A program made the position numbers and the translations under genes. Below the pieces are notes generated by a model that saw only the letters and a list, made by a program, of their open reading frames with translations, did not search any database and had not been told where the DNA came from. A stretch of 60,756 bases of DNA, counting the filler, from Hausera hauseri (lineage: Eukaryota): assembly GCA_046269625.1 (NCBI GenBank). It is 12 parts of 12 records of this genome, joined end to end, with 100 filler letters (N's around TTAATTAATTAA, not from the genome) between each part and the next. Parts side by side here need not be neighbours in the genome. Positions count along the whole stretch, not along the records: positions 51,524 to 56,036 come from JBJURY010546897.1; 11 more parts are not named here. One strand, 5' to 3'. Below, one piece after another: positions 3,330 to 59,750 of the stretch (position 1 is its first letter; the number at the start of each line of letters is the position of its first letter).

Positions 3330-3333
3330 TATT

Positions 3334-3351
3334 TGGCGACCCTAGCAGGAC
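3334..3351 (+). promoter_or_regulatory. Primer-binding site, tRNA-Arg-like
   Basis: TGGCGACCCTAGCAGGAC, 4 nt after the LTR end. It is complementary to a tRNA 3' end (GTCCTGCTAGGGTCG-CCA) and resembles Arg PBSs. Confidence 0.7.
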
Positions 3352-3503
3352 AGTTTGTGCCTCGCTAGATATTACTTTCAAGAGTCGACTAAAGACATAC
3401 CGGAGATTAGCGCCACTTACACCAAATAATTGTAATACGATAGAAGTAAAGAGTTTAAACTTGGGATTATAAGTGGTTAGAAGGGAATTAAGTAAAAATC
3501 AAA

Positions 3504-23500: not shown

Positions 23501-23503
23501 GTT

Positions 23504-23905
23504 CTGCCCCACCCCGGAGGGGTGGGTAATCGATAAATCGATTTTGCACATGTGCCAATCGATAGTGCACCCGGAGCAATATCGATCCAAAAAGTGACTA
23601 GCAACGGTGTCGTTAGGCACCGTTGCGAATGGCACTTTTGCACTTTTGCTTATCGATTGCTGAACAGTGCACTATTAATCGAATCGACCTGCACTTTGTG
23701 CAACCGGTAGTGCACACGAGTGCACATCGATTGGTGCAAGTGCAGGTGTGCAGCACATGTGCAAGTGTGCAAAAATCAATAATATCGAATTTCCGATAAA
23801 TTCAATATGAATTATTAGCACCCGGGACCAGGTGCAATTGGAAGCAAACATGATGTAATATACGAGTGTGCAGTTAGAATTTAAATTTATTGATTGAAAT
23901 TGCAA
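23504..23905 (-). mobile_element. Non-autonomous hairpin-terminated repeat (Helitron/Helentron-like), GTGCAC-rich
   Basis: Reverse-complement homolog of 30105-30500. GC hairpin CCCACCCC-GGA-GGGGTGGG at 23508-23526. Interrupts gypsy pol. Confidence 0.6.
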
Positions 23906-24223: not shown

Positions 24224-25160
24224 TGGGTTTCCTTTCCGGACAATTCCTTTTAATGTGTCCTACTTTCCCGCAACCAAAGCATCTTGGTGTTTGTTGGAGG
24301 TTGCATGTCTTGCTTGTATGCGCGTCTTTCTTGCACAACCAAAATTTTACCATCCTCTGCCTGCGTATTGTGCAGTTTGAAATTTCTCCTTTCTTGTCTT
24401 GGTTTGCAAATTTGTGCACCACCACATCCCGATAACTCCGTTGACCATCTTTAGTGTATTCTCTGACTATTTATCTCCCGTCTTTGCTGCCACTTTGTGA
24501 ACTTTCTGTGTTTTGGTTTTGATTTATTCTACGCTTTTTTCGTCACTGTGGTAGATTTCCTTTCTCATCTCCGGATTGTCACAACAGTGGATCATCAATT
24601 CCTATGTTAAAGCTTTCGGTGTTATTTTGTGACTAAAGATTCCCTTCATCAACAGTTCGATTTTGTTGAAGTAGGCGGCCGGTTCTGCCCCCTTCACTCT
24701 GTAGTCCAATGCCTCACTCAGATCTCGGCACAGCGTTATGGGTTTTGCAAAGGCTTTTCTCAATCGGTTTTCGTACTCTTTAGCTTTTGGGCTGACCAAA
24801 TGGTACTTTTCCTGTGCTTCGTCCGCCAAGAAGCACAAGACCGTGGTTTCTCGCTTGGTCTCCGACATGTTTATGAAGTCGAAGTATCTTTGGCATTTTC
24901 CAATAAAGGTTTCCACGTTGTCTCCTTTCTGGAATTCCTATGTGCATCAATTTCTTCTTGAAGAAGTCTCTTGAAGTGTTGGTCGCCATGTTAGTAGATC
25001 GCGTCTCTACCATCCCGAACTCAACCTCATTTGATGGTTGTAAAATAGAATTTTCCATAAAAGAGTTATTATAAAGTTTATATTACACTTATCTTTATAA
25101 CTCGGGAAATGTGTCTTATTTTCCTTCTTTTCTGAATTTCCTGACTTTCTGTTGGCTGTC
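24224..25160 (-). pseudogene. Third gag copy of the same gypsy family
   Basis: METFIGKCQRYFDFINMSETKRE..., with knuckle CFGCGKVGHIKRNC. The upstream leader is homologous to 21656-21780. Confidence 0.88.
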
Positions 25161-26276: not shown

Positions 26277-28578
26277 TGTCAATTTTACAAATACTGCACT
26301 TCTGCAGTGCGCAATGAAGAAAATTGTCACAGAACAATGGAAACATATTACGGAGTTTCAATTTGTGGTTTTCATTATTATATATGCCCATTTTGTGAAA
26401 CTGTCTCGGGACTTTCTTATTCGGAATTTTTCAGGCAGCATGGACATCACCTGTCCGATTTCTGTGAAAAGAAGGAAAAGGTGATTTTTCAAAATCAAAA
26501 GAAGGCACGGAAGATGGGAGGAGAATTGTTTGATACTGCAATCAGACAGAATAAAGAACTATCAACCAGTACTGCATTACAAACAGGAGGAAGTCGAAAG
26601 CGTTCTTGTGTCACTTTGACCAGGAAATTTAATCAAGGAAGACAGAGACATGCAGATGGTGTTGCTTTTAAAAGTCGAATAAGGAAATTTGTACTACCTG
26701 CAACAGGTCAAAATGCATTTCAGGATTTTCTGGATTCCATTTTAAATGATTGAATAGGAATATTGGAAGACAATCTGAGGGCGCTGACGTCTGTAAAAGT
26801 TAATTTAATGCTAGANNNNNNNNNNAAGAAGCAAAAAGAGCATTTAAAACAAAAAACAAGCCAACTTTGGAAAATAATATTAGTGCATTTTTGAATAATG
26901 AGTTCAGACACCTTATACATGAAGCAGAAGAATCTCAGGAAAAAAACAGAGGTTGAACGCTTTTGGTGATTAAGAATTTCAGGTACATAAGTATTTTCCA
27001 TGTGGAGGAAGTTCTTACATTAAGCTTTATGACTGGATTGAAAATAAAAAGGGCATGTAATGTTAAGAACAGTGGTCAGTTGTATTTTATATATGCAATT
27101 TTAACAAAATTTATAAGTCGGGATGCTCAAAAGGAGGAATTATACAGAGACCTTTAGCATGACTATGATTTGTCATGTATCAGCTTTCCACCATCATTTT
27201 ATGATATTGGGAAATTTGAGAAAATAAATTCAATTTCAATATATTTGCCATCGATGATTCGCAGGAAATTTATCCATTCAAAGTATGCGAAAGTGAAGGA
27301 AGAGATCAAAAGGACTTGCTTCTATTAAACGAAGTGGCCATTAATCATGCATGGATCAAAAGCCTTTCACGACTGGTCTCCAAACAAATTTCCAACCACC
27401 GTGGAAATATTGAAGTGTGTAAAAGATGCTTGACACATTTCAATAATGAGACAGGTCAAATGAAAATACAAGTACACAAACTTTACTGCAATAAAAAGGA
27501 GTGCTACGAGTTCATTTTCCAAAGGAGAATTAAAGTATGTTTAAGGAGTGTGAAAAAATGTTTTGAGTACCAATAGTCATTTATTGTGAATTTGAAGCAA
27601 TATTAAACTCGATACCAGGATGTTATCAAAATCTTGATCAGTCCCATGCTACAGCTTATCAATTGCATGAACTGTCTTCATTTTGTATGCACGCAAAAGG
27701 ATTTAATGAAACCCCTTTTTTGTACAGAGGTCTAGGAGCGGCTTTTTTATTTATGAAGAGATTGGAGAATATCGCAAGTGCAATTCAAAATATGAAAACA
27801 CAACGCATGGTTATTACGTTGGCTGAAGACGTTGAATGGGAAAATGCCATTGATTTCTATATATTCAGTAACAGCTTTACTTTTGATGATAACAAAGTCA
27901 GAGATCATTGTCACATCACAGTCTATTTTAAAGGAGCCGCATGTAAATCATACAATTTACGATGTCGAACAATCAACTTTATTCCTGTTGTTTTTCACAA
28001 TTTCATTGGGTATGATTGCCACTGTCTTATTAGAGAATTAAGTGAAGCTGCGGGAAAGATTGATGTCATCCCTCATAGTGAAGAGATATATAACAATAAC
28101 TAAACACATGGGGAAAATGAATCTCAGATTTATTGACAGCTTCAAATTTATGAGTGCGTCACTTGACAGTTTAGTCAAAAACCTTTCATCGATTTATTTT
28201 AAAGAAACAAGAAAAATTTTTTCTGCAGCACTTTTTGACTTAGTAAAGCGTGAAGGTGGTTTCTCCTATGATTACGTTACATAATGGGGCAAATTAGACG
28301 AAAGTTCACTACCAGACAAAAAGGAATTTTACAGATCACTATTAAATTCAGACATTAGCTATGATGATTATAATCATGCGCAGGCTTTCGATTGTAAATA
28401 AATGTGACAACAGCGATACATATCTTAAAACTGATGTTACTCCTTGCCGAAATATTCGATAGCTTCAGGGATGTTACCATAGGAAATCACAAACTGGACA
28501 CTGCACATTTCTTTACTGTTCTGGGAATGTTATGGGCGGCAATGGTCAGATATACTGGACTAAAATTGCAGATACTCA
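26277..28578 (+). pseudogene. Polinton/adintovirus-type protein-primed PolB relic (N-terminal half), copy E
   Basis: Cys/His module, then AFKSRI, SVKVNL, vOTU-like NVKNSGQLYFIYAIL, CKRCLTHF, endonuclease-VII/HNH motif VRDHCHIT...GAAC, and exonuclease motifs VVFHNFIGYDCH, LRFIDSFKFMSASLDSLVKNL, KTDV. Confidence 0.9.
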
Positions 28579-30974: not shown

Positions 30975-33900
30975 ATGTGCAATCTATACAAACAGTGCTT
31001 GGCTCAAATCCACGAGCCTGGATATTGCCACATTATGCAGAAATACTTCAGCCATCTATACAACAGGGCTGAGTATTATATATGCCCTACATGTGAGGCA
31101 GTGTGCCAGACCAAATATGAAGACTTTTACAATGCTCATAAACAACATCTGATTCCTTTCACCAAGTCAAAAAAACAAATATTCAATACTACTATACCAA
31201 TAATGACTTCCATGCCTAAGCAAAATCAAAGTTGCAGTTCATACGCGTATTGCACATGTGCAATACACAGCCCTCAGAACTGTCATAATGCCATGAGGAG
31301 CTATTATGGATAAAAATTCAATAGGATCCTTTATTATATATGCCCAGTATGTGAGACTGTATGTGGCGCAGATTACATACAGTTTTATTATGATCACAAA
31401 CATCATTTGAGTCACTTCGTATCAAAGCCAAAGAAGGCCATCTTTAACGAGCAACATAATTTTGATGCATCTGCTTCGCAGTATGATGCTTCGCAGTATT
31501 CTGCCTCGCATTATGCTTCTGGATCTGGTGCAACAGCCGCGAAGCATATTAGAGAATTGAAACGCGCAGCTGCATCATGCGCAGCAGTATCAGGCACGGC
31601 CACATCAGATGCACCGGCTCCATCAAAAAGCCCAAAACAGCAGTCAGTTGATACGGCAGCATTAAAGAGAAAATGACACAGACATGTTATTGAGGTAACT
31701 GATCAAACAACCCTCCAAAACTTCCTCTTATACACAAAGGACGCGACAGAGGGAATTCTTCAGGACAACATAGCTGAGCTGAAAGCTCTTAATGTGAATC
31801 TTATAGGGCCTTCAAGACCAAAAATAGACCAATATTGGAAAATACCAATAAAGCAGAATGGATGCAAAAGGTGCACGAGAAGCTGATCCACGAGGCTGAG
31901 GAGAGCCAGGATAAGAAGAGTGGATGAACCCTGGCAGCCATCAAGAGACTGCTTATGTATGTGCACAAGGACTACTCTATGCGGGCAGTTCATATATTCA
32001 GCTCCCTAGATAGATTCAGCAGGAAAAGGCATGCATCAATGTCCATAATAATGACAACATGTGTTTCATGTATGCCATTCTATCAAAACTCGTACGGGAT
32101 CAACATAATGCTTCACGACTTTGGCTATATAAGGATGTACATCACAAATATCACTTCCAATGTATTAAGTTCCCGCCATCCGTAGATGAAGTCAGGAAGT
32201 TCAGTCGAATCAACAATATATCCATCAATATTATCGGATTGGATAATGAAGACAAATTCTATTCACTGCAGATATGCGATATTGAATGGCATCTTCTTAT
32301 AGGGATCTCCTTCTACTAGACAATGGGAAAATGAAACATTATTTTTGGTTCAAGAACTTTGAGTTCCTAGTCAGATCTCAAATTACGAAACACACAACAA
32401 GAATCAAAATATGCAAACGATGCTTTTCCCATTTCAAGGGCAATGGGGCCGTGGACAAGCTTGCAGAGTAAAACATGTACTGTAACAACAATTATTGTAT
32501 CAATCCAGAATTTCCCAAGGAGGACTACATTGAATTCAAAGATTTCGAGTAGAAGATCAAGGTCCAAATAGTTATCTATTGCGACTTTGAAGCGATCCTG
32601 CGTCCAGTTCACAGCTGCAGCCCCAATGCCCAACATAGCAGCACAACGGCATACTAATATCATGAACTCTCATCATATTGTATGTATGCCACAGGACTGG
32701 ACAGTGAACCATATCTATTTAGAGGTCCAGGCGCAGCAGCACATTTCATGAAACGACTTGAAGATATGGCTTGTAGACTTGGTGATATGTTGCAGCAGCA
32801 TAAGGATACAATGAGCATGTCGAAGAAGCAAGAAGAAGAATGGCGCAAGGCAACAGCATGTTATTTGTGCTCCAAATCATTCACTGAAGAGAAATATAAA
32901 GTCAGAAATCATTGCCATTTTACAGGCAAATATCGAGGCACGGAATCCAACAGCCGCAATCTGCGTTGCAAAACACATACATGTGTCTGTAGTGTTCCAT
33001 AATCTCAGTGGCTATGATTCTCATTATACTGTTTGGGAACTAGGCAACATTGAAGGAAACATTAAGGCGATCCCTAATAGTGAGAAGTACATCACCTTTA
33101 CGAAGCATGTTGCGAAAATCAGGCTTCGCTTCGTAGACAATTTCCGTTTCATGCCGTCTTCACTTGACAGTTTAGTGAATTACCTCTTTGCAGAAGAACT
33201 GAAGAAGACGAAGCGGTTCTTTCCCATTACATTTGACCTCTTCAAGAGGAAGGGCGTGTTTCCCTTTGACTACATAACCACATGGAAAACGCTGGATAAG
33301 ACGTCATTGCCAGCCAAGAAGGATGTTTACAATATCCTCGCTGATTGCGATATCAGTGTTGCTGACTACCAGCATGCTCAGAACTTCTGTGATGCATTCC
33401 AATGCCAAACATTAAGAGAATACAGCGACATATACCTCAAGACGGACGTGCTGCTGCTGACGGATTTCTTTGAGAGTTTCAAGGATGTTATGATAAAGAG
33501 CCATGCATTGGATCCGGACATTTATTTACAGCTCCAGGGATGAGTTGAGCAGCTATGCTGTGCTATATAGGTATTAGGCTGCAGATCATAAGGGATTACG
33601 ACATGATCCTTATGATCGAGAGAAACATTAGAGGTGAAATATTCCAGGTCATTCACCGGTATAGCTAGGTCAACAACAATTATATGGCCCAGTATGATCA
33701 ATCCGAAGAATCCTCATACATATAATACCTGGATGCCAACAACTTGTATGAATGGGCAATGAGAGCCCCACTAGCATATTATAACTTTAAGTGGTTCGAG
33801 CATCCTGAAAACATCCCTGTACTGGACCTGTATCCTAGTGGAGATACGGGCTACATACTGGAGGTGGATATGGAATCCGGCTTCTATCCACACAATGCAT

Positions 33901-34915
33901 CAACAGCTGCCTTTCCTCCCTGAGAGTAAGCCTCCGCCCCATGGAAAGCATAGAAAGCTTCTCTGCCATATGGAGAGTAGAGAGAGGTATGTGGTCTACT
34001 ACATAAATCTTTTGTAAGGTGTTAGACATGGACTCCGCATTACTAAGATCCATAGAGCACTGCATTTCAGCCACTTCATGTGGCTGCAGCCCTACATAGA
34101 CCTCAATACAAAGCTGCGGACAAATGCCAAGAACGATTTTGAGAATGACTACTTCAAGCTTCACAACAACAGCGCATTTGGCAAGACTGTGGAAAACATC
34201 CGCAACAGGATCAACATTGAACTGGTCTCTGAGTGGAAGCGGGCAAAGAAGCTCATTGCCAAGCTCAATGTCCACAGCAGCAACATATATGCTGAGAACG
34301 TGGTCAGCATTCATATGCTGAAAACATCGCTTGAGTTTAACAAGCCCATTATGTGGGTATGACAATACTGGAGCTGTCAAAGACCTTGATGTACAAATTC
34401 AACTATAACATTATTATCCCCACATTCAAGTCCATACAGCTGATGTATATGGATACTGATAATTTCATCTATCAGATACATACTGAGGATATTTATAAGA
34501 ACTTTCTTAAGTTGGCACACATATGGATACGTCTGACTATCCGAAGGTGCATCTCAATTATTCAATTACCAACAAGAAAGCCCTCGGAAAATTCAAAGAC
34601 GAGGTGAATGGGGCAATCATTTCGAAATTTGTAGCTCTTAGATCCAAAATATATGCAACTGATTTATGTGATCAGATCAAAAAGAGAGATAAGAGCGTTC
34701 AAAGGGCTACCTTAGCCAAGATCACTTTTGCGAATTATGTGAGAGTTCTGCATGAGAAAACTCATAACATGTCACAGATGCGAAGGATGCAGTCTAGGAA
34801 TCATAACGTTGAGACAGTAACATTACAAAAAAAGAGCCTAGATTGGATGGATGACAAAAGACAGATCCTGGATGATGGAATAAGCACACTACCTCACGGA
34901 CATGTGGCATTGTAA
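30975..34915 (+). pseudogene. Near full-length protein-primed PolB relic, copy A
   Basis: Two Cys/His modules, vOTU-like INVHNNDNMCFMYAIL...HYFW, IYCDFEA, VRNHCHFTGKYRG, VFHNLSGYDSH, RKGVFPFDY, YLDANNLY, KLHNNSAFGKTVEN, YMDTD, ALGKFKDE, DDKR and TLPHGH. AATAAA near 34944. Confidence 0.95.
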
Positions 34916-35692: not shown

Positions 35693-37703
35693 TTACAATG
35701 CCACACGTCCGTGAGGTAGTGTATGAATTCCACCACCCAGAATCTGCCTCTTGTCATCCATCCAATCTATGCTTTTCTTCTGTAGTGATACTGTCTCAAT
35801 GTTATGATCCATAGACTGTATCCTTCGCATATCCAATATGATGTGAGTCTGCTCATGCAGAACTCTCACATAATCCACAAAAGTGATCTTTTTGGTTAAG
35901 GTAGCCCTTTGAACGCCCTTAGCTCTCTTTTTGATCTGACCACATATATCAATTGTATACATTTTGGACCTAAGAGCTACAAATCTCGAGATCATTGCCC
36001 CATTCACCTCGTCTTTGGATTTACCAAGGACTTTCTTGTTGGTAATTGAATAGTTGGGATGCTCCTTCGGATAGTCATACGTATCCATATGCTGTGCCAA
36101 CTTAGCAAAGTCCTCATAAATGTCCTCTAGTATGGATCTGATAGATAAAAGTATCAGTATCCATGTACATCAGCTATATGGACTTGAATGTGGGGACCAT
36201 GATGTCGTAGTGGAATTTGTGCATCAGGATCTTTGACAGGTTTAGTATTGCCATACCCACACATGGGCTTGTTGAATTGCAAGGATGTTTTCAGTATATG
36301 GATGCTGACCAAGTTCTCAGAATATAAGATGCTGCTGTGGAAGTTAGGCTTGGCAATGAGCTTTTTTGCTTGCTTCCACTCACATACCAGTTCGATGTTG
36401 ATTCTGTTGCGGATATTCTTCATGGTCTTGCCAAAACGTTGTTTTTGTACGGCTTGAACTGGTCCTTCTGAAAGTCGTTCTTGGCATTGGTCCGCAGCTT
36501 CGTATCAGATTTATGTACGGCTGCAGCCAGTTGGACTGGCTGAACTGCAGGGCTGTATGGATCTTAGTGACGCGGAGTCCATTCCTGACCGCTTGGTGGA
36601 GATTTATGTAGTGGACTACATACCTCTCCCTATTATTTGGATGGCAGAGCAGCTTTCTATGCTTCTCATGGGGTGGAGGCTTGCTCTCAGGGAGGAAAGG
36701 CAGCTGTTGAAAGAAGCCGGATATTCCATATCCACCTCCAGCATGTATCCCGTATCTCCAGTCGGATCCAGATCCAGTATAGTGATGTTTTCAGGATGCT
36801 TGATCCACTTGAAGTCATCATATGGAAATAGGGCGCTCATGGCCCATCCATACAAGTTGTTCACATCCAGGTATGATATATGCGGATTCCTTTGATGGAT
36901 CATACTGGGCCATATACTTATTGTTGGCCTCGCTATACCGGTGAATGGCCTGACATATTTCACCTCTAATGCCTCTCTCAATCATGAGGATCATGTCGTA
37001 ATCCTTTATGATCTGGAGCCTAATACCTGTATAGTGCAGCATAGCTGCCCAACTCAGTCCTAGAGCCGTAAAGAAATGAGCTGGATCAAATGCATGGCTC
37101 TTCATCGTAACATCCATAAAGCTCTCAAAAACATCCGTCAGAAGCTTTACGTCCGTCTTAAAGTATATGTCGCTGTGTTCCTCTAATGTTTGGCATTGCA
37201 ATGCATGCCAGACGTTCTGGGCATGCTGGTAGTCCTCATCACTGATATCGCAATATGAAAGGATATTGTAAAAGACCTTGGCCGGAAATAATGTCTCATC
37301 CAGTGTTTCCCATGATGTGATGTAATCATAGGGAAACACGCCTTTCCTTTTGACTAGTTCAAATGTAGTGGGAAAGAATCGCTTCGTCTCCTTAAGTTCT
37401 CCTGCAGGGAGGTTCTTCACTAAAGTATCCAGTGACGACGACATGAAACGGAAGCTGTCAACGAAGCGAATCCTGATTTTCCCAGTATCCTTTATAAAGG
37501 TGATATACCTCTCCTCACTATTAGGGATCACATCAATGTTTCCTTCAATGTTTCCCAGTTCCCTCACAATGAAATGGGAATCATAACCACTGAGGTTGTG
37601 AAACACTATAGGCACATATGTACATGTTTTGCAGCGTAGATTGCAGTTGTTGCATGCCGCGCCCAGATGTGTGCCTGTAAAATGGCAATGATCCCTGACC
37701 TTA
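35693..37703 (-). pseudogene. Protein-primed PolB relic, copy B (convergent with copy A)
   Basis: VRDHCHFTGTHLGAACNNCNL, VFHNLSGYDSH, KRKGVFPYDY, GIRGEI, YLDVNNLYGWAM, MDTD and DDKRQIL. Closely related to copy A. Confidence 0.95.
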
Positions 37704-37803
37704 NNNNNNNNNNNNNNNNNNNNNNNNNNNNNNNNNNNNNNNNNNNNTTAATTAATTAANNNNNNNNNNNNNNNNNNNNNNNNNNNNNNNNNNNNNNNNN
37801 NNN

Positions 37804-42739: not shown

Positions 42740-45700
42740 CAAACATTATTCCGTGTATTGCGTATCACTCATACACTTAGATCAGGAGCAGTGCCATCAG
42801 AAGTTGGCGAAGTATTACGCTGTGGGGACGGACACATATCTATGTCCCACGTGCATTGCCCCACATATCCACAATACTGTACTAGTAGAGTGCATAACGT
42901 TGATGGTTGCCATACTGCAATAGAGCAGAACTATGGCATCATCACAACGCTACACAGTAAACGGGTCTATGTTTGTCCCGGTTGTTGTTGTTATATAGTT
43001 GATGATCAAATCAACTATGAACAATTCTATAATCAACAGAATGACCACTTAAACCAGTTTAAACGGTCCAAAAAGCAACTAATCATGGACTCAACAAAAA
43101 GAAGCATCCCCTCAACAACAACAACAACAACAACAACCGGTAGGAAACGTCAAGCATCCACAAGCTTTGACAAATACTCGCAAAGCAGCAGCAGTAAGCA
43201 ACAGCAGCAGCAGCAACAACATGACCATCAGGAATCACCCATTACCGTCAAGTACGATCTAAACAGATCGTACGTGGACATGAATGTGGATATGTCAGCG
43301 GCAACGACAACAACAACAACAACAATGCAATTGAGACATGTCCCGTCCCGTGTGCGAAACCGACTGAAAGTTGAAGTGCGGAAATTCAAACACAATTGTA
43401 AAGTGCAGTATTATGCACTTGCAGAATTCGAAAACGTGCAAGGTGACAGGAAACAATAGTACCTGTCACATCGAACTGTGCTATATGCCGAAGATTTCGT
43501 TGAGGACATTGGCGAAAAGACCGATGAGAAAATCGCTAAATATACGGAAAAAGGCAGCGGCTGGCGAATTGTAAAGATTGTCACTCTAGGCTTTATTCTG
43601 ACCAAGACGAGTGACATGATCTACCTGTCCGGACGTTCATTCATACCGACACCTGCATCCTTCAAGCAGTCTCTGGCGGTAGTGAATGTACAAGATACTA
43701 ACGACGAATACTGCTTTATTTATAGCATTCTGACTGTATTGAAATATGATCAAGTGTCCAGACATCATGCAAATTGTCCAAAGCAGTACAGTAAGTATTC
43801 TTCAGAATTGGACTACGACGAATGTTGGATGCCGATGAAACTCAAAACCATTCCGGCTTTTGAACGGCGTAATCCGACAATGGCAATCAACGTGTTCCGG
43901 TATAACACAATTATAGAGATACCGACAGATGAAGAAATATACAAAAATTCCCATGTAGACATAATCTACCGCAGTCGGAACGCAAATGGACGCCCAGTAA
44001 ATTTGTTGCTGTTGGAAAATGCAGAAAACTTTCATTATGTGGCAGTAACAAATTTTGATAGACTATTAAACATGGACCATTATTAGTTTGTCCAAAAACG
44101 CATACACTGCAAATGGTGTCCCATATGTCTACATGGCTTTAGGTCAGAAGCGATACGGGAAAAGCATGTGGCGCTGTGCAAGAAAAATGCAACAGAAACA
44201 AAAATGTATGTCATGCCAGTCAAAAAGGAACTGAGATTCAGTGACTGGTTAAAAATCGACAGTCTGGCATATGTGGTATATGCCGATATCGAGGCAATTT
44301 TACCACGGCACAACATCTACGACCAAGGGCATGTCCTAATCGCCGTCAGCATGCTGATTGTGCTAATTAAAACCCACGGACAATTACAATACTACGTTTT
44401 GCATGGATAAAACTGTGTCTGCGATTTCCTGCATTAGTTGGAAACAATAGTAAAAACGGAAATCGCGCCGTGGTATTGGAATAATAGCACTAAACCCTTG
44501 GTCTGGGCAAACGAATGTGAACCACTGCTTTTCGCTGCCACTGACGAATGTTACCTGTACCATAAAATATTGCCGTTCGATGCACAGGAATGGCTCGTAC
44601 CGGATCACGATCCTTTCACTGGTCGATACTTTGGAGCAGCATGCAATTCATGCAATTTGGCAAGACGGGTGCCGCCATTCCTGCCGGCCATATTTCATAA
44701 CTTCAGGGGTTATGACTATCACCATATTCTGAAATGGGTCATCAACGGATTTCCACACTGGGAGCTATACATAATCCCAACAACGATGGAGATGTACTTC
44801 TCCTTAGCAGCACGCAGAAACCGGTTTCAGGTACGATTTCTTGACTCATTGCAGTTCCTCAATGAGTCTCTAGCAAAGCTCATAAATGCCTTGCCGGATG
44901 TTCCGCTAACAGTGACGCAGTACCCCACGTATATTGCACGTAGCAAAGGCATATTCTCATATGACTTTGCTGTGTCGTACGAGCGGCTTCAGACAACAGA
45001 TGAATTGCCGCCACAATGGACTGAAATCAGAGAGGACAAGTACCACAGAGCACAGGAAGTATGGACAGAACTCGGCTGCAGAAACATGTTGGAGTACATG
45101 CTCCAGTACCTGAAACTGGACGTGTACTTTTTAGCCGATGTGTTTCAGACATTTCGTGCTAAGGCGTTGGTGGAAAATAGGCCGGAGCTGCTAAACTTTT
45201 ACTCCATACCGGGGATGAGTTGGGCATCGGCACTAATGTCGCTGGACAGGGAAATTGATCTGTTGCAAGACCCGGAAATGTATCGACTATTTAATGCTGA
45301 TATTCGTGGCGGCATGACATTTGCAACAAACATCACGTAACCAGTGATGACGATGATGATTATACAACGTCAATGTTGTACATCGATATTAATAACCCGT
45401 ACGGCTGGGCGCTTTCACAACCCTTGCCGTACGGTTCATTCGAATGGATAGTCGACATACAGGACCTGGACACAATAATGAAAAATCTGTCGAGGGTGCC
45501 AGACACGACAACAGCAGAAAACAGCTCAATCGGATACATAATAGAGGTTGATCTCGTGGTACCAGATAAGCTGCATGACTTTCTGGAGGAACTACCGGTC
45601 ACACCAATTACCCAATATCCGCCTAACGGTTTAAAAGTAAAGAAGCTGCTCATGACACATAAAACCAAATCAAATTACATAGTTCATTGGCGTATACTGC

Positions 45701-46640
45701 AGTTTTAGATGCAGCTCGGCGTGCGCGTCACAGCTGCATTGTGCAATCCACTTCAGTCAGGAGCCGATATAGAAGGCGTACATTGGTGGAAATTCAGAAA
45801 AACGAGCTGCAGCTTGTCAAAGTTCGAAAAGGACTATTACAAGCTCAAAAACAATTCACTGTACGGGAAAACAGTGGAAAATCTGAAGAAGCGGCTCAAT
45901 GTGCGCCTGTGCAACAACGAAAAGTGGATGGTTACGTACACCAGCAAGGTTTAGTTCAGGCGGTCAATGCACATTGCCGACAAATTGGTGGCCGTGCTTT
46001 TCAACAGGGAAGAAGTCGTGCTAAACCGGCCAAGCTACATCGGGCAAGTGGTATTGGACCTGAGCAAGTTGCGAATGTAAAAGCTCCAGTATCGCGACTT
46101 GGCACGTTATCGGCAAATGTTTGGCGGCGGCGGCTGGGAAATCAGTATTGTTGCCGGTGACACAGACAGCTTTTTCTTGGAGCTGAAAAACATCGATCGG
46201 GACCAGCTGCTCCGACAAATGATGGCAGATGGACTACTGGACACGTCCAACTGCCCGCCGGATCATCCGCTGTACAGCAGCGCGATAACAAGCAAAATCG
46301 GCTGCTTCAAGGACGAAAGCGAAGGTCGGGTCCAGTACAGGGAATGGATATTACTACGCCCAAAGTTCTACAGTCTTCTGACGGAATGTTGGCCAAAAAT
46401 GCGCGCAAAAGGCATCCAGCTGAAACAGACGAACTAAGTCACGGTGATTATCGCCGCGTCTATGATGGACAAGATGGAGAAGACGGAAAGGCTGTTGTGT
46501 CTCAAACGACCATACGATCGATTGAGCACCAGCTATATACAATCACAAATAGAAAGGTTGCTTTGTCATGCAACGATGACAAGCGAAAATGGGTGGGGCG
46601 GAATAAGAGTTGGGCGTACGGACATTGGCGTTTGAAGTAA
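42740..46640 (+). pseudogene. Near full-length protein-primed PolB relic, copy C (second subfamily)
   Basis: Cys/His modules, poly-T/Q tracts, KGSGW, VVNVQDTNDEYCFIYSIL...FHYVAV, VYADIEA, DHDPFTGRYFGAACNSCNL, FHNFRGYDYH, YLKLDV, IRGGM, YIDINNPYGWAL, KLKNNSLYGKTVEN, AGDTDS and DDKR. Confidence 0.95.
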
Positions 46641-47863: not shown

Positions 47864-49390
47864 TTGTTGCCATTCATAAGGGAAAAATTCCGATCAAACA
47901 ATGCGAAAATGCTACTAAACATCCTGGTGCACATGTTCCCGACGATTCTGCGTGGGCTTAACGTAGCTGCAGTGGCATCATCGAGAAAAGTTCAAATATC
48001 AAATGAATGTAACCAAATAAATTCCAAAACACAATTTTCGTTAGAAGAGGAATTAAACAATTTCAGAATTCAGCTTTTGCTTATTGAAAACGAACGTAAA
48101 CCATGGAATAATCTAGTAGAAGCGTGCAAAGAATTCTCCATTGAGAATGGGACATTGGAATATTTCGAAATTTCCGATAAGTACGGAGCGATCGTTGACA
48201 ATTACACCACAAAATTACGGAACGTAGTGACGTGTCAGCATGGAGGAGGTAAAGGTGTTGTTCATTGGACAACACAATGTCGGTAAATCGATGATCATCA
48301 ATGCCATGCTTGGTACCAGATTGGTCACCGTATACAATGGCACGACAACCAGTTGCTTCGTTGGTATTCAGCAGTTTCAGATACTGGCATTGCAATACGG
48401 CAATGAAGAGGAAGTATTCAACAGTGAGAGTGAATTGGAATTTAGCAGAATGCAAAAGAATCGTAATATTCGCCAAAATATGTTTACACTTATGAATCAA
48501 TGTGACAAAGATGACGGCGACGAGGACAAGGACGCAATAAATGAGAACAGATAACGTATTCGCAATTAATGCATTAATATGCTGAAAATTCAGGGAGATC
48601 TTTGATGGTTTGAAGCCGAGCGACGAGTGTTTTTTGTATCGGGTATGGAAGTTTTAAAGTATCGACTCGGAGAGTTTGGTTTATTGTCTGACGTACAACA
48701 AATTCGATTGGAAGAGTTCCAGAGATTCGAAGATTTTCTATCGACGTACGTAAACGATATTAAACTACGGCATCGAGATGATACAGAAAAAGAATTTTTT
48801 ACAATTATTGGTGCGATTTGTAATGATTGCCAAGCTTTCATAAAAGAAATTAAAGATGCTAAAAGTAAATTAGACCCAAGGTTACTCAGCATGGTAATAA
48901 ATGACATCGACAATAAAATAAACGATATTGTGAATGAAATCTACTCTAGTACAGGACGAATTAGGTCAGAGTTACGGAAAAAAACGTCGTTGCGTAGAAG
49001 CGACCGTACATTAGTAATGTCACAGACAATCTCGTGGTTAGGTAAACCATTTTCCAATAGCAAATATTCCGATCAACCGCTTGAATTCGCAATTGACTAT
49101 GCGGATAAAGCTATTCGAAAGTTGAATACTGAGATAAATGATTGCGTGGTCGTATACATAAACAAGGTTATCAACCAGTGTAAACGGCTGTACACACAAG
49201 AGAAACGTATTGTCGTTATGGAGAACATCAAAAGAGAGACATTCAAATGCGATTATATGCAGGTTGAATTAAAGAGAAACAGTTATTTCAGCCATCTTCA
49301 TAATGTCAATGATGTTAATGCCAAATTTATTCAACCCGGACTTATCGCTGCATACCAATCCAAAGACGGTTTTGAACGTGTTAAAGTCCT
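47864..49390 (+). pseudogene. Divergent intronless mitofusin/Fzo-like dynamin-superfamily GTPase relic
   Basis: VDNYTTKLRNV, then KVLFIGQHNVGKSMIINAML...GTTTSCF (G1/G2), VFNSESEL, NMFTLMNQCD (G4-like) and RRVFFVSGMEVLKYR...RLEEFQRFEDFL. The G3 region is deleted. Frameshift and stops are present, and the gene is cut by a retroelement. Confidence 0.75.
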
Positions 49391-49416
49391 ACAAAAGACC
49401 AAAAAAGCGGAGACCT

Positions 49417-51423
49417 CGGTTACCCCGAAATTTCCCACCCGCCACGGCGAGGCTGAAGCTCCGACCGCCCACCCTATACCACTGGGTCAGACGGCATCCC
49501 TTGTCTCCGCCCCACGACACGCCTCCATCTACACGAACTCTCCTTATTTCCTATTCTTTTTCTTAAATAACAAACAAATTTGCACAAATGCAGTAACACA
49601 TTTAAACACGGCGGCAATCTATAACTTCACCTCCACTTTTCTTTGCACACCTGACTTTTACCTCACATTACGAAGCCATTGTACCTCTCGTTGGGAATCT
49701 GCAACCTTCTTCCATCTATATTCACCTTCACATTCACTTCCGCATCCGTGGTGGCATGGATTCACTACCCACTATTGATAACACGGACAAACCCATCAAA
49801 CCACCGATCTCTATCACTTACTTACCCAAGCAAAGTGCTTCAAATAACCCGACACATCACACACTCCCCACTCATTCACCCTGCACAGAATACTTCCTCG
49901 ACAGCCAAAATTCTACGCAAACATGGCTAAAACTTCATCAATTCTGGCTCCAATCACAAAACATCGTCAACCCCTTATCCAAAGCCAACGGCCGGTTTTT
50001 TCATTTACATGCCTCTCTCAAAACTAAAATTACAAACATCATCGACATCCTTCACCACATCGATCCATATGCTCAACTTTATAATGCTGTTTTTAAGCTC
50101 ACTGAGCCGTCAATTGATTCTATCATTCAAAGGTTCCTTAATGACAACGCCATGGGCCTACAGAAGCCTTCTTAATTCTTGCGCACATCTTTGTCTCACT
50201 TCAATACCCTTGGCGTAACATCTGTGCATAGTCCAGTACTTCTTTGTCGTTACTTTTTAAACGCATTGCCCCTTCAAATAAGAGCTCTGCTCACTGTGGT
50301 AGAGGACTGCACTGCACTGGAAAAGTTGGCCGAACTGGCAGACAAAGCTTATGAAGTGCTGCGCTCACACACACTATCAACTGTCTCTGCGGCATTAACA
50401 ACAAACCACCAACAACAAAATGCATTGCTACAACAACAAATTGCGCAATTACGCTCAGACAACGAAATTTTTTAAAAGACAATAAAATAAACGAGAAATT
50501 AAATGCGTTGACGCTGCCTCGACGAGGTTTTTCTAGGGCTGCCTCCCCTATTGTATTTTATCAAAGACAAAGACGGTCGCCTTCGTCCGCGCGGTCGTCT
50601 ATTTGCTACTATCACAACAAGTTTGGTAACAATGCAAAGAAATGCTGAATTGGTTGTAAATTTTACTCCCCGATTTTAATACAAGCAACATCGTTTGCAT
50701 CTATAACTCAAAATTTGGAACAAAAGCACAAAAATGCCTACCTGGCTGTAACTACAACAGGCACAATAAAGTCAATACCACTAAACCTACACAAAACAGT
50801 AGGTCAAATACACCAGCCACAAAAAACTGGTTTTGCCGCTAGGACACATGGCAAGTTTTAGCAAAGGCAACAACCTACAAAAAGATAGCCGATACACTTC
50901 TTTTGCTGTATTCACGTTGGAAGCAGCAGTTGTCACTCCAACAAAGCAAAACATTAATTTTCTCAGACACTGGCGCAGCAATCTCTTTACTATTACCAAC
51001 ACAGCACATCCAAAACAATTTCACTTCAAAAAACAACTGTTCACTGCGTCTGTTGAACCTTTACAAACTTTTGGTGTTATTAAATTAAATTTTACGCTTC
51101 CAAATTTTCCAAACTCATTCACTTGGAAATTTACAGTAGCCGGCGTACGCACACCTATATTGGGTGTATACAATTTACTTGTAGACTGCAAAGTATGTTC
51201 CTTAACGAGCGGAAACAATTTTAATCAAATTAGCAGCATTTTGTTGACCACCCGGGAGATCGCTTCCAGAAAGTTAATACTAAAGAAAGCGACCTCCGAT
51301 TTGACTTATTTTTATAATCATTCATTATATTGAAATATTTATTACGGCAACAAATACGATATTGCCAACTGCGTGGCACCTATTACTAATAGTACAGCTG
51401 CCAACACAATCTTCAACACGAAC
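49417..51423 (+). mobile_element. CsRN1-clade gypsy 5' part: degenerate tRNA-Trp-like PBS, gag with CHCC motif, protease
   Basis: CGGTTACCCCGA resembles TGGTGACCCCGA. gag reads MGLQKPS...FLNALP...LAELADK, followed by CYYHNKFGNNAKKC*IGC. Protease reads DTGAAISLL...FTWKFTVAGVRTPILG. Confidence 0.88.
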
Positions 51424-51523
51424 NNNNNNNNNNNNNNNNNNNNNNNNNNNNNNNNNNNNNNNNNNNNTTAATTAATTAANNNNNNNNNNNNNNNNNNNNN
51501 NNNNNNNNNNNNNNNNNNNNNNN

Positions 51524-54168
51524 TATATAAATTCGCACTTTACTCTGTTTAGTTGCGCATACTTCGCAAGCGCTTATCCAGTTTTTCTCATCAATATGTA
51601 CACTTGGTTAGTAGTATTTGTTTAGTATCCTCTATAAAGTCTTTCTCCAGGACATGTGTCCGGCTAAATATGAATCGTGTTTAGCCCTTAAGACGCCTAT
51701 TTTCTAAATTTTGCTTATAACTACTAATTTCCTTCCTTTTCGTTTACAGTACAAAACTTTTCATCATCTCTATGATGGGAATACGATATTTGTGTCCGTA
51801 TTGCTGTAAGTGCTTTTTTAGCTGATGACCTTTAGGCATTACATCTGTTTCAGAGTACTCAATGATTTGTTGTATAACCTTATCCTTTTTTTGTTGGAGT
51901 GAAATTTTGATTGCTTTATCTAAAGCTAGAATTCCCTGTCGATCTACTAACTCTTAGAGTCTATTTTTCTTCATTGTCGTAATAACACTTGTTTTTGTCT
52001 TTAGTCTAGATAATGCGTCAGCATCAATGTGCTTAGTACAGGGCTTATATTGAAATTCAATATTGTACCTTGAGATTTCTTCGATCCATATATTTAACCT
52101 GCATGTAGGATTGTTTGCTCGGCCTTTCAAAGTTGTAACTGCTTTGTGATCTGTTACGTCATTGAAGTGCCTTAAGGCTACTTTTACAGCTAACGTTCCT
52201 AATTCTCACTCCGAATAATTTTTTTCAAATTTCTTTAAGGAGCGTCGTCCATAAGCGATTGGATATTCCAATTCTTCATCCTTGCATCTCTGTGCTACCT
52301 CGTATCCAATTCCTTCTTTACTGGCGTCTGTCTTAATAATGAACGGAAGGTTAAAATCATGATATCTCGACACTGGCTCACTGGTTAATATTTTCTTCAT
52401 TTCATCGAACGCTTTTTGTTCACATCCGTCCATTTCCATTTGATTCCCTTTTTAGTAATCGATATAACGGCACGTTTATTTTCGAGTTATCCGGTACGTA
52501 AGTAGCGTAGTATCCACATAGGCCCAGTCAATGTCTTAATTCTTTTTATTTCTGCGGTTCCATACAGTCTGAAATATTATTCAATAATGATTTACCTGGC
52601 TTTGATCTTCTTTTTCCAACTATATGGCCAAGGTAAGATACAGCATTTTGAGCCCATTTACATTTCTTTGGATTTAGCTTTAACTCAGCTTGTTCTAATC
52701 TGATGAGTGTGTCTTCGATGTATTTTAGGTGTTCTTTCTCTGTTTTTGAGGCAATCATTACGTTGTCTAAGTACTCAAATGATGCTTGAGTCCCATTAAC
52801 ATTTTGTTCATTATCCTAGTGAAAATGGCTGGTCCGGCGGTAATTCCGAATGGCATAACATTAAACTCATACTCCATCATGAGTCTTAAACGCTGTTTAA
52901 TAAAGATCCTCATCTTCAATTTCTACTTGCCAATATTCGGATTGTATGTCCATAGTGGTAAACCATTTTGCTCCTGATAGTCTATCTAGTGCTTCTTTAC
53001 AGACGGTAAAGGAAATGAGTCTTTTATTATAAGACTATTTAGTGCTCGATAATCGATACAAAATCAATGTTTTGTGGTAACTTTCTTTTTGACCATAAAT
53101 ATAGGCGAGTACCAAGATCTAAAATTTGGTCTAATTATATCGGCATTAAGTTTTCACTCTATTTCCTTAGTTATTTCAGCTCTTAAAAAGTGTGGCGGTG
53201 GGTACCATTTTGGCATCTTCTGTTCCTCGAGATCAATTTTGTCGTTTGAACCAGGCTTTTTCGTAAGTGGTATAGTTAACTTTAACGCTTTTGCTCGACC
53301 AATGTCTTCTTCATCCTTAGCAATAATCGACTTCTATCGGCATAGTAATTCATAATACTGACAACATGCTTTTGGTGAAAATTTTGTGTCTACATGGGCG
53401 GAAACTCAGCATATTGGTATCGTTTTTCCTTAACGGTCATTGCTGATACTTTATAAGTGTACCCTAAAGTAGTATTAGCATATAGTTTTACTGGAATTTG
53501 TGCGTTGTTTGTTATTCTAACAGGTATCCGACCGGAGGCTGCACGGGTTAATACATTACTCAATATTATACTTGAATTCAACGTTTCTTTCGGCTCAAAA
53601 TATACCGGTAAATCGTCATCTGGACAAATTTGTGCGAATATTAATAATTCCGTTCTAGGCGGATATTTTCGTCTACCGAGATCCATACTTCTTCAATTTC
53701 TCTCTTATTAATTTTCGCCTCTTTTATTGGTCCAAGTTCGATTAGCTTCGAGGTGTTTAAGTTTACGGCTATGTTTGGTAGTCATTTTAATAGATCGCAT
53801 CCTTGTACTGCGTCATCATTTAAGTGTTCCATTATCGAGAATTAGTGTTGGAAGGTTTGTCCCATTATGTGGACGTTAGGATTCCATTTAAACCTGGGCT
53901 TTGACTCTTGTCCGAAAGCTCCTATGCTTCCGGGGTCGGTTGCTAGCGGTAACCGCAACTGAGTCCGTAATGTCTGTGGTATAGATCCGTCTTTTATAAA
54001 TGATCTCTCTGATCCGGTATCTATTAACGCGTATACCTCCCAATCGTCAATACTACTTTTGGCGAAATATCTACCCTCTTTAATTCTGAGTTGTTTAACA
54101 GTAGATAATCTGTGTCCATTTATACTGATTTCTTGTAAGCTACTCGTGTCTTTGGCTATTTGTCCCAA
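51524..54168 (-). pseudogene. pol: Ty3/gypsy pol: protease, RT, RNase H, integrase Zn-finger
   Basis: ALIDTGSERSFI, FCIDYRALN, KDSFPLP, YEFNVMPFG, EYLDNVMI, KLNPKKC, SYLGHIV, IKTDASKEGIG, TDHKAV and HDSYLAGH...CEVC. Confidence 0.95.
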
Positions 54169-54719
54169 TTCGCTAGCGGCATATGGTCCATTATTTACGC
54201 GATTTTTATCGTCTTGTGCGTATGTGTCAAATAACGGTTCTCGGTTGTTCGAATTACAAAAAGACTACATTCGTAGATTATCCCAAATTGATATTTTAGT
54301 TTCAATATTTTGTGGAATTCTTGGAGAGTATATTACTCTATGATCGTCAACCTATTGCTGCTGCAACGCTGATTTTACTCGGATTCCGTATATTTTCCGT
54401 AAGGCACCATACTGTTTTGTCCTTTTATAAGGGTCTTCATAGCTAAAGGGTTTCCGATAGGTTTCTGGCCTATAAGAGTCGATTAATCTTTTATCGCAAT
54501 TCTTATATACTGGTGCCGAAGAAGGAAGCATAGGCAAAGACGGTTTTACGAACATATGTTCTATATTTTTACTTAGATTGGAGACCATATCTCCTCCCTT
54601 AGGCTCATAATCATCTGAATTGTTTCTTCGTCATTTTATATCTCTTTATCCTATAAAGGATACGAGTTTTCGCTTTCCTTTCCAATTGTAATAGCCAGCA
54701 TGTCTTTCGACATTGCTTT

Positions 54720-56036
54720 TCCATTTGTTTTTTTCATATGCCCTCAAAATTTTTTCAATGGGTGTTATAATTGAGGTCAGAATTTTGCATGAAAATCCAG
54801 TCAAGGTAAGTAGTTCACAACCTTTAATAATGTATTAAATTAGCGTTTTAATTAGTTGTGCCAAGAAGTAGATGGCTAAAAATCCGGATGCAGCTTGTCC
54901 GAAAATTAAAAATCTTCCCATATTTTGTATAATATTTCTGTAGTAACTCTTTGATAATTGTTAGAACCAAGCAAGGATTCCCATTTCGCCTGATAGCGAA
55001 TATCATCTATCACTTCTGACACAGCTCTGTTCAATTCATTCCTACGCTGACAAGGAAAAGCTAAAAACTGTCTAAAAGCTTCAAATCCCTTTACTCGCGA
55101 TGTCAGTGAATTTATCGTCCGTAATACCTTTTAGCAAATTTGTACCTGTTAATTTACTCGGTGTGGCTGTTATTCCTCCATTTGGCAGACTTACCCCGTC
55201 TGTCTCGCTTCTTTTAAATATAGGTTCTCCTAAACTTGATTTACATTCTTTTAAAATTGTTGATTGCGTTGAGTTTTGCAATAAGACTCTTGTAAGTAGC
55301 ATTGCTAATCGAGGCACATTCTAATATAAGACTGGCAATTCTTGTATACAGCGTTTCTCTTCCACGTTTATGGAAACATCCCGTTTTTCTCACTCGTATG
55401 TTAATAGAACTTCTCTAGTGACTGGCCCGAAAATACCTTCTTTCATTGAAATTACGGGTGAGGCTAGATCGGGATTGGCATATGTTAAGACCATTTTGGT
55501 TCTCATAATTTCTATGTGCAACTTACAGTCATTCGAGATCATTTTGTGGTATAGCTCTGCTATTTCGGTCTATCCCTTATAATAAAAGTAGTCATCTCTA
55601 TTTTTCAAGTAGTCTTATATCTTCACATCCTGCGTTTCCAACGTAAAAGTAGTTATTGCGGCTTCTGATACAAAGAATGCTTCATAGTTGGTGGCGTACA
55701 TCACTACGTTACATCGTAAAAGCATTTGCTTTTTAATAAACTTTAATCCATGTTTGTCCGAAATCAAGATCATTAGTATGGAGTGTTTGGCCACGTCCTT
55801 TCTTGATCTGACATTGGTATCTATTGTATCTACGTATGTTTTTCCCGTAGTTTCGTTAAAACTTATCTTTATTATTTTGATAAAATTATAGTTGTTCGCA
55901 GGAGGTGGCGTCTAAATAATTATCGAATTTCGGAAGATGTAAGCTTTACCTTGAATATGGCACCTCTGATTTTCAGTATATGCTTTCGTGACACTGTGAA
56001 ACATTATTTTTTAATTTCTCATTTTTGTCTCATAAA
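54720..56036 (-). pseudogene. env: Env-like fusion glycoprotein (chuvirus-G / gB-like class III type), C-terminal half with TM region
   Basis: RCNVVMYATNY, DYLKNRDDYFYY, ELYHKMISNDC, ANPD, EGIFGPVTREVLLTYE*, RCIQELPV, LTRVL, SKGI, FLAFP, W-RFLIFGQAASGFLAIYFLAQLIKTLI*YIIKG...GFSCKIL. Order and spacing match chuvirus-like glycoproteins. Confidence 0.8.
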
Positions 56037-56139
56037 NNNNNNNNNNNNNNNNNNNNNNNNNNNNNNNNNNNNNNNNNNNNTTAATTAATTAANNNNNNNN
56101 NNNNNNNNNNNNNNNNNNNNNNNNNNNNNNNNNNNNAAA

Positions 56140-57248: not shown

Positions 57249-59750
57249 TTATTTCAGCTGCCAATGTCCATACGCCCAACTCTTATTTCGCCCCACCCAC
57301 TTTTGCATATCATCGTTACATGACAAAGCGACTTTCGCACTAGTTATTGCGTACAGATGGTGCTCAATTGATCGGATGATAGTTAGAGATATAACACCAA
57401 CTAATTGTCCTCCTGCTGTTGCTGCTTCACATGTGCGACAATAATTACTGTGGCCGCTTTCCGTCTGCTTCAGCTGAACTCCTTTTGCTCGCATTTTCGG
57501 TCCGCAGTCCGTCAGAAGACTGTAGCACTTTCGGCGTTGGAATATCCATTCCGGATAGTAAGCCAGACCCTCACTTTCATCCTTGAAGCAGCCGATTTTG
57601 TTGGTAATCGCGCTGCTGTACAACGGATGATCCGGTAAATAGTTGGACGTGCCAGGTAATCCATCTGACTGTATTTGTTGCAGTAGCTGTTCGCGATTGA
57701 CTTTTTTCAGCCGTAGGAAAAAACTGTCTCTCACCGGCAATTATGCTAATATCACAGCCGTCAAACATTTGCCGGCAACGTGCCAAATTGCGATACTGTA
57801 ACGCATACATCCGCAACTTGCTCCGGTCCAATACCACTTGCCCGATGTAACTTGGCCGGTCCAGAACGACTTCTCTGTTTAACAGCGCCGCAACCAATCC
57901 ATCGGCAATGTGCATTGGCCGCCGAAACTGCGCCTTACTCGTGTACGTGACCAATCGCTTTTCGCTATTGCATAGGCGTACAATGAGCCGCCTTTTGAGA
58001 TTCCCCACTGCTTTTCCGTACATGGAACTGTTTTTCAGCTTGTAATAGTCCTTTTCGAACTTTGTACAAGCTGCGGCTCGTTTCTCCGAATTTCCACTTA
58101 TGTGCGCCTTGAATACAGGAGCCTGAGCAAATCTGATTGCACGATGCAGCTGTGCAACGCTAACACCGACCTACATGTAGAACTGTAGCAGACACCAATG
58201 GACCTCGTAATTCAGCTTCAGTTCATATGTCATGAGCAGTTTCTTCACTTTTTAGCCTGGTAAACATTGGTTAAATAATGCTACCGGTAAATGGTCCAAA
58301 ACTTCATGCAGCTAATTTGGTACCACTAGATCGACCTCCATCTGGTATCCGACTAAGCCTGCCATGCCTGCTCATGATAGGCTAACCATTATGTCGTCCA
58401 GATCTTGTCTGTCAACTACCCATTCGAATGAACCGTACAGCAATGGTTGCAAAAGCGCCCAGCCGTACAGGTTATAAAAATAAATATACAGCAGTGATGT
58501 GGTATCGGTTGCACGGATCCGATGCTCGTTGACAAATGTCATGCCACCTAGAAAACCAATATCAAACAGCCGGTACATTTCCGGGTCCTGCAGCAGCTCA
58601 ATGTCTCGATCCAGTGACATTAGAGCTGACGCCAAACTCCAGGTATGGAATAAAAGTTGAGTGGCTACAGTCTATCTTCAGCCAACGCTTTAGCTCGAAA
58701 TGTCTGAAACACATCGGCTAATAAGTAAACGTCCAGTTTTAGATTTGAAGCATGTACTCCAACATGTTTCTGCAGCCGAGTTCTGTCCAACACCTCTGTG
58801 CTTCCCGGTATTCATCCTCTGTGATACCTGTCTATCGCGGCGGTAATTCCCCTGCTGTCCGGAGACTCTTATATAATATTGTAAAGTCATACGGGAATAT
58901 GCCTTTTCTACGCGCAATGTATGGGTAATTGCTAGAGACCCATTGAAAAACTGCAATGAGTCGAGGAAGCGTACCTGGAACTGGTTTATGCGTGCTGACA
59001 GGGACAGGTATTTCTCAATTGTTTTTGGGATTATTGATAGTTCCCAGTTGGGAAATCCATTAATGGCACATTTCAGTATATAGTGACAATCATAACCTCG
59101 AAAATTGAAAGATCACCGGTAAGAATGGCCGCACACGCTTTGCCAAATTGCATGAATTACATGCTGCTCCGAGGTATCGACCAGTAAAATGATCGTGATC
59201 CGGTACGAGCCGTTCCAGTGCGTCAAACGGTAATATTTTGTGGCGCAGGGAACCTTCATCTGTGACTGCAAACGTCAGGCGTTCATCATCATCTGTCCAC
59301 ATCAAGGGTTTATTGCTCTTTCTACTGTAACAGGGTGCGATTTCAGTTTCCACTATGATTTGCAACTGCTAAAGGAAATCACGTACACAGTTCCAGCAGT
59401 AAAAGGAGCAATACTGCGGCTGACCGACTGCTTTATTGGGACAACCAACATACCAACGGCGAATGGAACGTGTTTTTGATCATACACGTTGTGCAGTGGT
59501 AGAATTGCCTCAAAGTCGACATATACTACATATGTCGCATTGTCCGTTTTCGACCAATCACTGAATAGGAGCTCCTTTTTGCGTGGCGTAACGTACATGG
59601 TTGTTCCCATTGAATTCTGCTTGCACAGCGTCACATGTTTCTCCCATGCTGTTTTTGATCTGAATCAATGCAGACATACAGGACACCATTTGCATCGTAT
59701 TCCCTTTTTGTTCAACAGTCTATTCAGATTTGTCACTGCCACGTAATGAA
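57249..59750 (-). pseudogene. Protein-primed PolB relic, copy D (same subfamily as C)
   Basis: FHYVAVTNLNRL, VYVDFEA, DHDHFTGRYLGAACNSCNL, GGMTFVN, NLYGWAL, YGKAVGN, PSYIGQVVLD, IGCFKDE and SWAYGH. Confidence 0.93.

Follow-up and report, generated by a model that had tools for sequence, protein, structure and literature searches.

The element and its reading frame

The window analyzed here, a stretch of 60,756 nucleotides from Hausera hauseri (assembly GCA_046269625.1), is a string of short contigs joined via linkers, drawn from a fragmented and repeat-rich assembly, and consists mainly of mobile-element fragments. The finding described below is confined to one contig of ~4.5 kb (JBJURY010546897.1, window positions 51524-56036), which carries on its minus strand a decayed Ty3/gypsy retroelement with a predicted envelope fusion protein (env) ahead of pol. 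As this contig sits between two N-TTAATTAATTAA-N assembly linkers (non-biological, read directly from the sequence, at 51424-51523 and 56037-56136), both ends of the element are truncated. Missing at the env end are ~150 N-terminal residues of the ectodomain (query residue 1 aligns with residue 300 of the relative P0013, whose ectodomain begins at 149), the signal sequence, gag and the 5' long terminal repeat (LTR).

Read in the coding direction, the contig opens with the C-terminal two thirds of a gB/chuvirus-type (class III) ectodomain (55084-56034), recognized by Pfam, model and fold matches and interrupted by six stops in 317 codons, where shuffled sequences average 24.0 and none of 5000 shuffles had so few. 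Its membrane-proximal end (54918-55082) lies in the neighboring frame, and since that frame is stop-free over 55 codons and matches relatives best (mean local score of 55 vs. 19 and 17 for the other two frames, 16 relatives), the compensated pair of frameshifts is confirmed. Next come a predicted membrane anchor and a weaker hydrophobic or amphipathic segment (54721-54918; 19-mer Kyte-Doolittle maxima of 1.91 and 1.48, respectively), a hydrophilic, likely cytosolic tail or linker (54064-54720) and an aspartic protease with its DTG motif near 54021 (53773-54063), all in the same frame as the ectodomain. From the anchor (54918) to 53644 this frame holds 7 stops in 425 codons, compared to a shuffled mean of 30.4 (0 of 5000 shuffles as low).

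The tail has no known domain: a Pfam match at E 1 was not found, nor was a second protease that was looked for inside it. Over its 219 codons there are four stops (54648, 54633, 54354 and 54267) vs. a shuffled mean of 16.2-16.3, a depletion equaled in 0 and 1 of 5000 shuffles in two runs. Because stops are depleted and the tail decayed at the same rate as its neighbors (stop densities of 4/219 in the tail, 6/317 in env and 2/140 in the protease), we conclude that it was coding in the env frame. The protease itself is a weak match to RVP (E 0.003) and a clear one to a profile of 40 protease segments from relatives (E 1e-11). It is followed by reverse transcriptase (RT; 52438-53360; RVT_1 E 1.6e-15, tblastn and translation), a Ty3/gypsy-type RNase H (51960-52421; RT_RNaseH_2 E 1e-23, RT_RNaseH E 3e-17) and the N-terminal zinc finger of integrase (51533-51754; tblastn of relatives, 28-40% identity), with the remaining integrase and everything downstream cut by the contig end. 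The RT is broken by several frameshifts and stops and has a degenerate active-site motif; owing to these lesions past the protease the copy is non-functional, i.e., it is dead and decayed.

Within the contig we found no CCHC knuckle, gag match, repeat or motif resembling a primer-binding site (PBS), and the interval between env and protease was likewise searched for gag, CCHC, PBS-like motifs and LTRs with negative results; neither an Rfam scan nor a tRNA scan of the window gave a hit. The original prediction for this locus, namely ectodomain, anchor, tail and protease in a single minus-strand frame, a frameshift pair at 55080-54915, no LTR, PBS, CCHC or gag before the protease, and RT-RNase H-integrase behind it, is upheld. 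Its statement that point stops and the frameshift pair are the only disruptions is accurate up to the protease and fails beyond it. The element is probably a truncated Ty3/gypsy copy in which env, anchor, tail and protease share one frame ahead of RT-RNase H-integrase, and whose active ancestor likely encoded one membrane-spanning polyprotein. Judged by the type of element, the host is likely an invertebrate.

The fusion protein and its intact relatives

The ectodomain matches PF24664, the Monjiviricetes fusion family (E 4.6e-11), and the anchor zone matches this family again (E 7.3e-10). Its structural model (X at stops, 86-row alignment) reached a predicted local distance difference test (pLDDT) of 82.8 and a predicted template modeling score (pTM) of 0.62. 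Among the PDB matches listed by Foldseek, all were gB, GP64 or thogotovirus GP, with herpes gB on top, at a best E of 3e-3 and none below 1e-3, and a VIA structure search returned class III proteins at ranks 1-8 (best, gB of herpes simplex virus 1, Z 8.3, root-mean-square deviation 4.6 over 226 residues). In BFVD there were 30 matches below 1e-3, the best viral one being a chu-like virus glycoprotein (E 3.6e-9), while a sequence search of the PDB gave only two chance rows. The PDB fold scores are modest when taken alone, but Pfam, BFVD and PDB agree on class III, and we consider env as modeled to have a gB/G/GP64-like class III fold with predicted fusion activity, as had been proposed. One further relative, P0116, has a PF24664 glycoprotein fused behind immunoglobulin domains.

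A full HMMER (phmmer) scan yielded 133 relatives, 22 of which, picked by rank or length, were scanned against Pfam; when the env-protease frame was instead compared by word index with 3336 candidates, no longer relative emerged. A protease follows env within the same protein in eight of the nine best relatives (E up to 1e-30). At least 11 relatives carry env, protease and RT in one open reading frame (ORF), i.e., the intact single ORFs whose existence had been anticipated: nine proteins (P0005, P0006, P0009, P0018, P0024, P0138, P0141, P0143 and P0145), found using cluster members and a second search, and the DNA loci L001 and L002. The latter are at least two relatives recovered among 592 stretches of metagenome_contigs, whereas 63 pattern matches in viral_contigs contained none. 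Given that the protein relatives are automatic gene calls, L001 and L002 were examined as DNA, and both are open in the standard code (3426 and 2693 codons, respectively) with zero stops between env and integrase. L002 is arranged as gag capsid-CCHC-signal-env-anchor-protease-RT-RNase H-integrase-signal-ectodomain-anchor, with a PBS-like TGG motif at the ORF start (by eye); a second LTR was not seen. One complete env-pol polyprotein, P0006 (HBK71150.1), is recorded under a Flavobacteriaceae metagenome-assembled genome and likely derives from a mis-binned eukaryotic contig.

The env tree was built from 97 of 143 rows plus the window copy (46 short rows left out), and as only 28 of the 55 off-frame residues of that copy were masked, its branch is lengthened. 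The window copy falls in a starred set of 24 rows (97 in the Shimodaira-Hasegawa-like approximate likelihood ratio test, SH-aLRT) that includes all 18 env-protease ORFs, and not one of the 74 rows outside this set has a downstream protease motif; the window env thus groups with env-protease ORFs, apart from env-only rows. For pol, the 11 rows nearest in RT-RNase H (38-42% identity) include 10 env-first ORFs. The RT trees comprised gypsy-type rows only, without BEL, copia or retroviral outgroups; six of 71 rows were left out of the alignment as short, and a careful tree dropped 35 more (31 rows). In the best careful tree the window copy and all 11 closest rows stand on one side of a branch with a bootstrap of 56 and SH-aLRT of 97.

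Sequencing run X1 contains about half of the contig's words and may be the source sample. Related sequence in it is thousands of times deeper than single contigs across env, protease and RT alike, a depth that suggests a many-copy family, and single X1 contigs bridge the stretch from ectodomain through anchor to tail start (54592-55436) and the tail to 54042. These data bear on the idea that the junction is unique to the window copy, i.e., that a nested insertion, a recombination event or a misassembly brought a piece of env next to a gypsy pol. In its favor, and counting against an inherited fusion, the copy lies on one short contig of a fragmented assembly, no X1 contig covers the entire env-protease junction, and the RT placement branch is weak and unstarred, with the window copy as a long branch. 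However, a frame kept over 425 codons with 7 stops against 30 expected is hard to reconcile with a chance junction, env and RT both lead to the same env-first relatives, neither repeat nor PBS-like motif nor gag lies between env and pol, and related sequence in X1 is deep over all three regions, with the bridging contigs named above; we regard a junction private to this copy as very improbable. From the single ORFs of relatives, the DNA of L001 and L002 and the env tree, it is very likely that the env-pol fusion is ancestral to the lineage, in line with the lineage-wide (gag)-env-pol order originally suggested.

Predicted membrane topology and a candidate post-integrase protein

Of 16 non-redundant relatives, 15 carry a hydrophobic segment directly before a conserved A/G-Y/F-D-C start, 518-545 residues ahead of the anchor; it looks like an internal signal sequence for removal by signal peptidase. 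Past the ectodomain, a single crossing is favored because the first hydrophobic segment outscores the second in every one of 17 rows and because Pol has to be exposed to the cytosol. The anchor is separated from the first protease motif by 129-389 residues in relatives and by 298 in the window copy. The relatives' tails are enriched in [LIV]YP (10/16 vs. 1.3 expected) and YPxL (6/16 vs. 0.45 expected), motifs that we take to resemble ALIX-binding late domains; PSAP occurs in one of 16. PSSAPVY, pointed out before in the window tail, is indeed present, but it offers only SAP and no canonical PSAP, and a late-domain reading is weak for this copy even though YP-type motifs are enriched in its relatives.

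The anatomy of intact relatives fits a Pol that would be made on the cytosolic tail of an anchored fusogen. The internal signal before env would insert the fusogen and be cut by signal peptidase, the env anchor would cross the membrane once, leaving tail and Pol on the cytosolic side, and Pol, tethered to the fusogen's tail, would be freed by its own protease at the particle budding site. In relatives, a second internal signal past integrase may insert a second type I membrane protein, and Pol would thereby be placed between two glycoproteins. Intact relatives thus suggest a way of packaging Pol without a Gag-Pol fusion, i.e., by a tether on the cytosolic tail of the envelope protein.

Several observations weigh against such a continuous, singly crossing polyprotein. 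Only 9 of 16 relatives have gag or CCHC ahead of env within one ORF. Identity to the closest relatives is 24-30% for env and 42% for RT-RNase H, no relative being both intact and close, and the window tail aligns to nothing, so that any of the four tail stops could mark a true terminus or a site of read-through in this sub-lineage. Inside the env set, five rows end without a protease: P0013 and P0014 appear frameshifted or cut (by eye) and P0015 ends inside the ectodomain, while P0017 and P0021 stop shortly past the anchor, may be true env-terminal ORFs and therefore count against a universal fusion. Finally, a few rows have values as high as 1.5-1.7 for the second hydrophobic segment, which might form a membrane hairpin after env.

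The tail stops and the two env-terminal candidates would suit an element whose env and pol share a frame while Pol is limited by stop read-through, or by a spliced or internally started RNA, with the env-Pol fusion a minor product. Retroelements usually make less Pol than Gag, which would speak for some such control, and the Tor elements express env by splicing or internal promoters (PMC4402516). Decay, however, predicts what is seen in the tail, where stop density equals that of env and protease; L001 and L002 have no stop from env to integrase, and a stop-free spacer of 130-390 residues, kept in 18 relatives, would be needless if pol were spliced. We therefore hold regulated or spliced Pol expression to be improbable. 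The last of the above observations leads to another alternative, in which the layout is right and the topology different, with env crossing twice or acting as a mere tether for intracellular assembly without an infectious particle. The second hydrophobic segment (1.48 in the window copy, up to 1.71 in relatives) would allow for it, and how gB-type errantiviruses enter cells is, according to PMC13524379, unknown. Against it, two crossings would leave protease and RT on the luminal side, separated from RNA and deoxynucleoside triphosphates, a full ectodomain with conserved cysteines is retained, and budding-like YP-type motifs are enriched in the tails; such a topology seems highly unlikely, and a polyprotein crossing the membrane once after env is the reading we prefer.

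Past integrase, all nine env-first ORFs that reach this region have at least two hydrophobic segments with signal-anchor spacing. Of 60 other gypsy Pol proteins, from a search limited to 2000 residues, 23 had the motif; three of these end in it and 20 continue beyond the integrase core, and none of the 20 has such segments. The predicted product, encoded in one ORF with integrase, is a second type I membrane protein made of a signal, about 250-400 residues and an anchor (L001 9050-10282 and L002 7700-8521; also P0005, P0006, P0018, P0138, P0141, P0143 and P0145). These second ectodomains align among close relatives only, and in Pfam they find nothing beyond weak rows of membrane-anchor type. 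For the L001 protein, Atlas neighbors are fibronectin type III domains (0.87-0.90, low recognition) and a single-sequence fold is of low confidence (pLDDT 36), making the fibronectin resemblance a weak lead. The window copy ends ahead of this region.

Two to seven aspartic-protease motifs per ORF are present in 10 of 16 relatives, and one in the window copy. Multiple motifs, some past integrase, were seen in P0138, P0005, P0143, P0010, P0007, L001 and others, and C2H2 zinc-finger motifs in P0005, P0008 and P0138. L001 carries, inside its ORF and between the second and third protease domains, a further signal-plus-anchor cassette (4754-5400), and a separate downstream ORF (10617-12107) encodes an RNase T-type exonuclease (PF00929, E 1.4e-5) resembling ORF3 of rotifer LTR elements, a DEDD exonuclease (PMC5408684). 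P0018 has an exonuclease-like stretch ahead of env (by eye).

We tentatively propose, as a possibility that we would not yet favor, that env-first elements are two-glycoprotein retroviruses, whose single ORF would cross the membrane at least four times in the order gag-signal-fusogen-anchor-protease(s)-RT-RNase H-integrase-signal-second glycoprotein-anchor. Here the second glycoprotein, fast-evolving and possibly fibronectin type III-like, would act as the receptor-binding partner of gB, and the extra proteases might free enzymes and tails at the membrane. This reading is based on the relatives. Herpes gB requires partner glycoproteins, and entry by elements carrying gB is unknown (PMC13524379); if the proposal is true, the gB-like fusogen would find its missing partner for receptor binding in the second glycoprotein. 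As nine of nine intact relatives show a second predicted type I protein, the question of how gB elements enter cells becomes testable.

The rest of the window and known systems

Elsewhere in the window, the first contig has on one strand (232-4424) a RING finger (2266-2607), a 351-residue frame that Pfam does not recognize, and a retrotransposon gag (3709-4424) that matches the gag of P0145 (E 1e-15). Other gypsy-type fragments of gag, protease, RNase H and integrase lie on separate contigs (4526-5613, 15717-16046, 21682-23536 and 24231-24937). Decayed copies of an apparent protein-primed DNA polymerase B, presumably of Polinton or adintovirus type, occur at 43460-46640 (plus strand), 57249-59664 (minus strand), 27220-28103, 32658-34915 and 35693-37747, the first two being 74-81% alike. 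A long inverted duplication on one contig (33082-34959 and 35649-37513, arms 82-90% complementary) is either a diverged inverted repeat or an assembly fold-back, and P-loop fragments at 48231-49778 resemble a dynamin-type GTPase (by eye).

The novelty of gene order implied by the original prediction does not stand. Ty3/gypsy elements of several clades in Nematoda, Bryozoa and Platyhelminthes have been described with env of gB type only, arranged GAG-ENV-POL (Chary and Hayashi, PMC13524379), and gB-type glycoproteins adjoining gypsy pol, outside BEL/Pao, are already published. The window copy shares with these elements a Ty3/gypsy pol, a gB-type env and the placement of env before pol (PMC13524379), and its pol follows the order protease-RT-RNase H-integrase with gypsy-type domains (Pfam, tblastn), the contig being cut inside env. 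By layout and env type, the window element belongs with them. The same paper cites Sacco et al. 2022 for nematode elements in which env and pol are flipped, the pol being of metavirus type and the glycoprotein captured from an RNA virus. The window contig has env to protease in one frame, is decayed and has its gag end cut. Neither a fusion in frame, nor additional protease domains, nor a membrane protein after integrase is discussed in the main text of PMC13524379, figures aside. In our literature search, no further paper on GAG-ENV-POL order with a gB-type env was found, nor any account of an internal signal before env, extra proteases or a second post-integrase membrane protein. The nematode study by Sacco et al. 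in 2022 reportedly describes one continuous gag-env-pro-pol ORF. The order of genes is not new, and a continuous ORF has probably been published as well.

BEL/Pao elements with a chuviral glycoprotein (Anakin; Dezordi et al., PMC7642597; PMC10084718) have the PF24664 family in common with the window copy. They differ in that the window pol has a gypsy-type RNase H and integrase zinc finger and env lies upstream of pol; among the contig's matches there was no BEL/Pao-specific family, while gypsy polyproteins were matched. In arthropods, no clear capture of such glycoproteins by gypsy elements was seen (PMC10084718). The insect errantiviruses (gypsy, ZAM) and Oikopleura Tor are, like the window element, Ty3/gypsy with an envelope gene, but they encode env downstream of pol in an ORF of its own, which is expressed via splicing or an internal promoter (PMC4402516), and in Drosophila gypsy this env is of F type, unlike the gB-type env of the window copy. 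More generally, env or extra ORFs are located after pol in the elements of PMC4402516 and PMC5408684.

With herpesvirus gB and chu-like (Monjiviricetes) G the window env has its fold in common, although sequence identity is no more than 9-13% with gB and about 13-26% with the top viral G rows, and it differs from both in being one domain of a retroelement polyprotein. The role proposed for the second glycoprotein of the relatives may be likened to that of gD/gH/gL in herpesviruses. Alphaviruses and flaviviruses make a polyprotein laid out as capsid-signal-glycoprotein, and the working layout of an env-first element would be similar, except that it would put Pol between two glycoproteins. The window copy is an ordinary fossil of a described group; the features for which no published account was found are those of its relatives, and the copy matters as a pointer to intact elements with two predicted membrane proteins.

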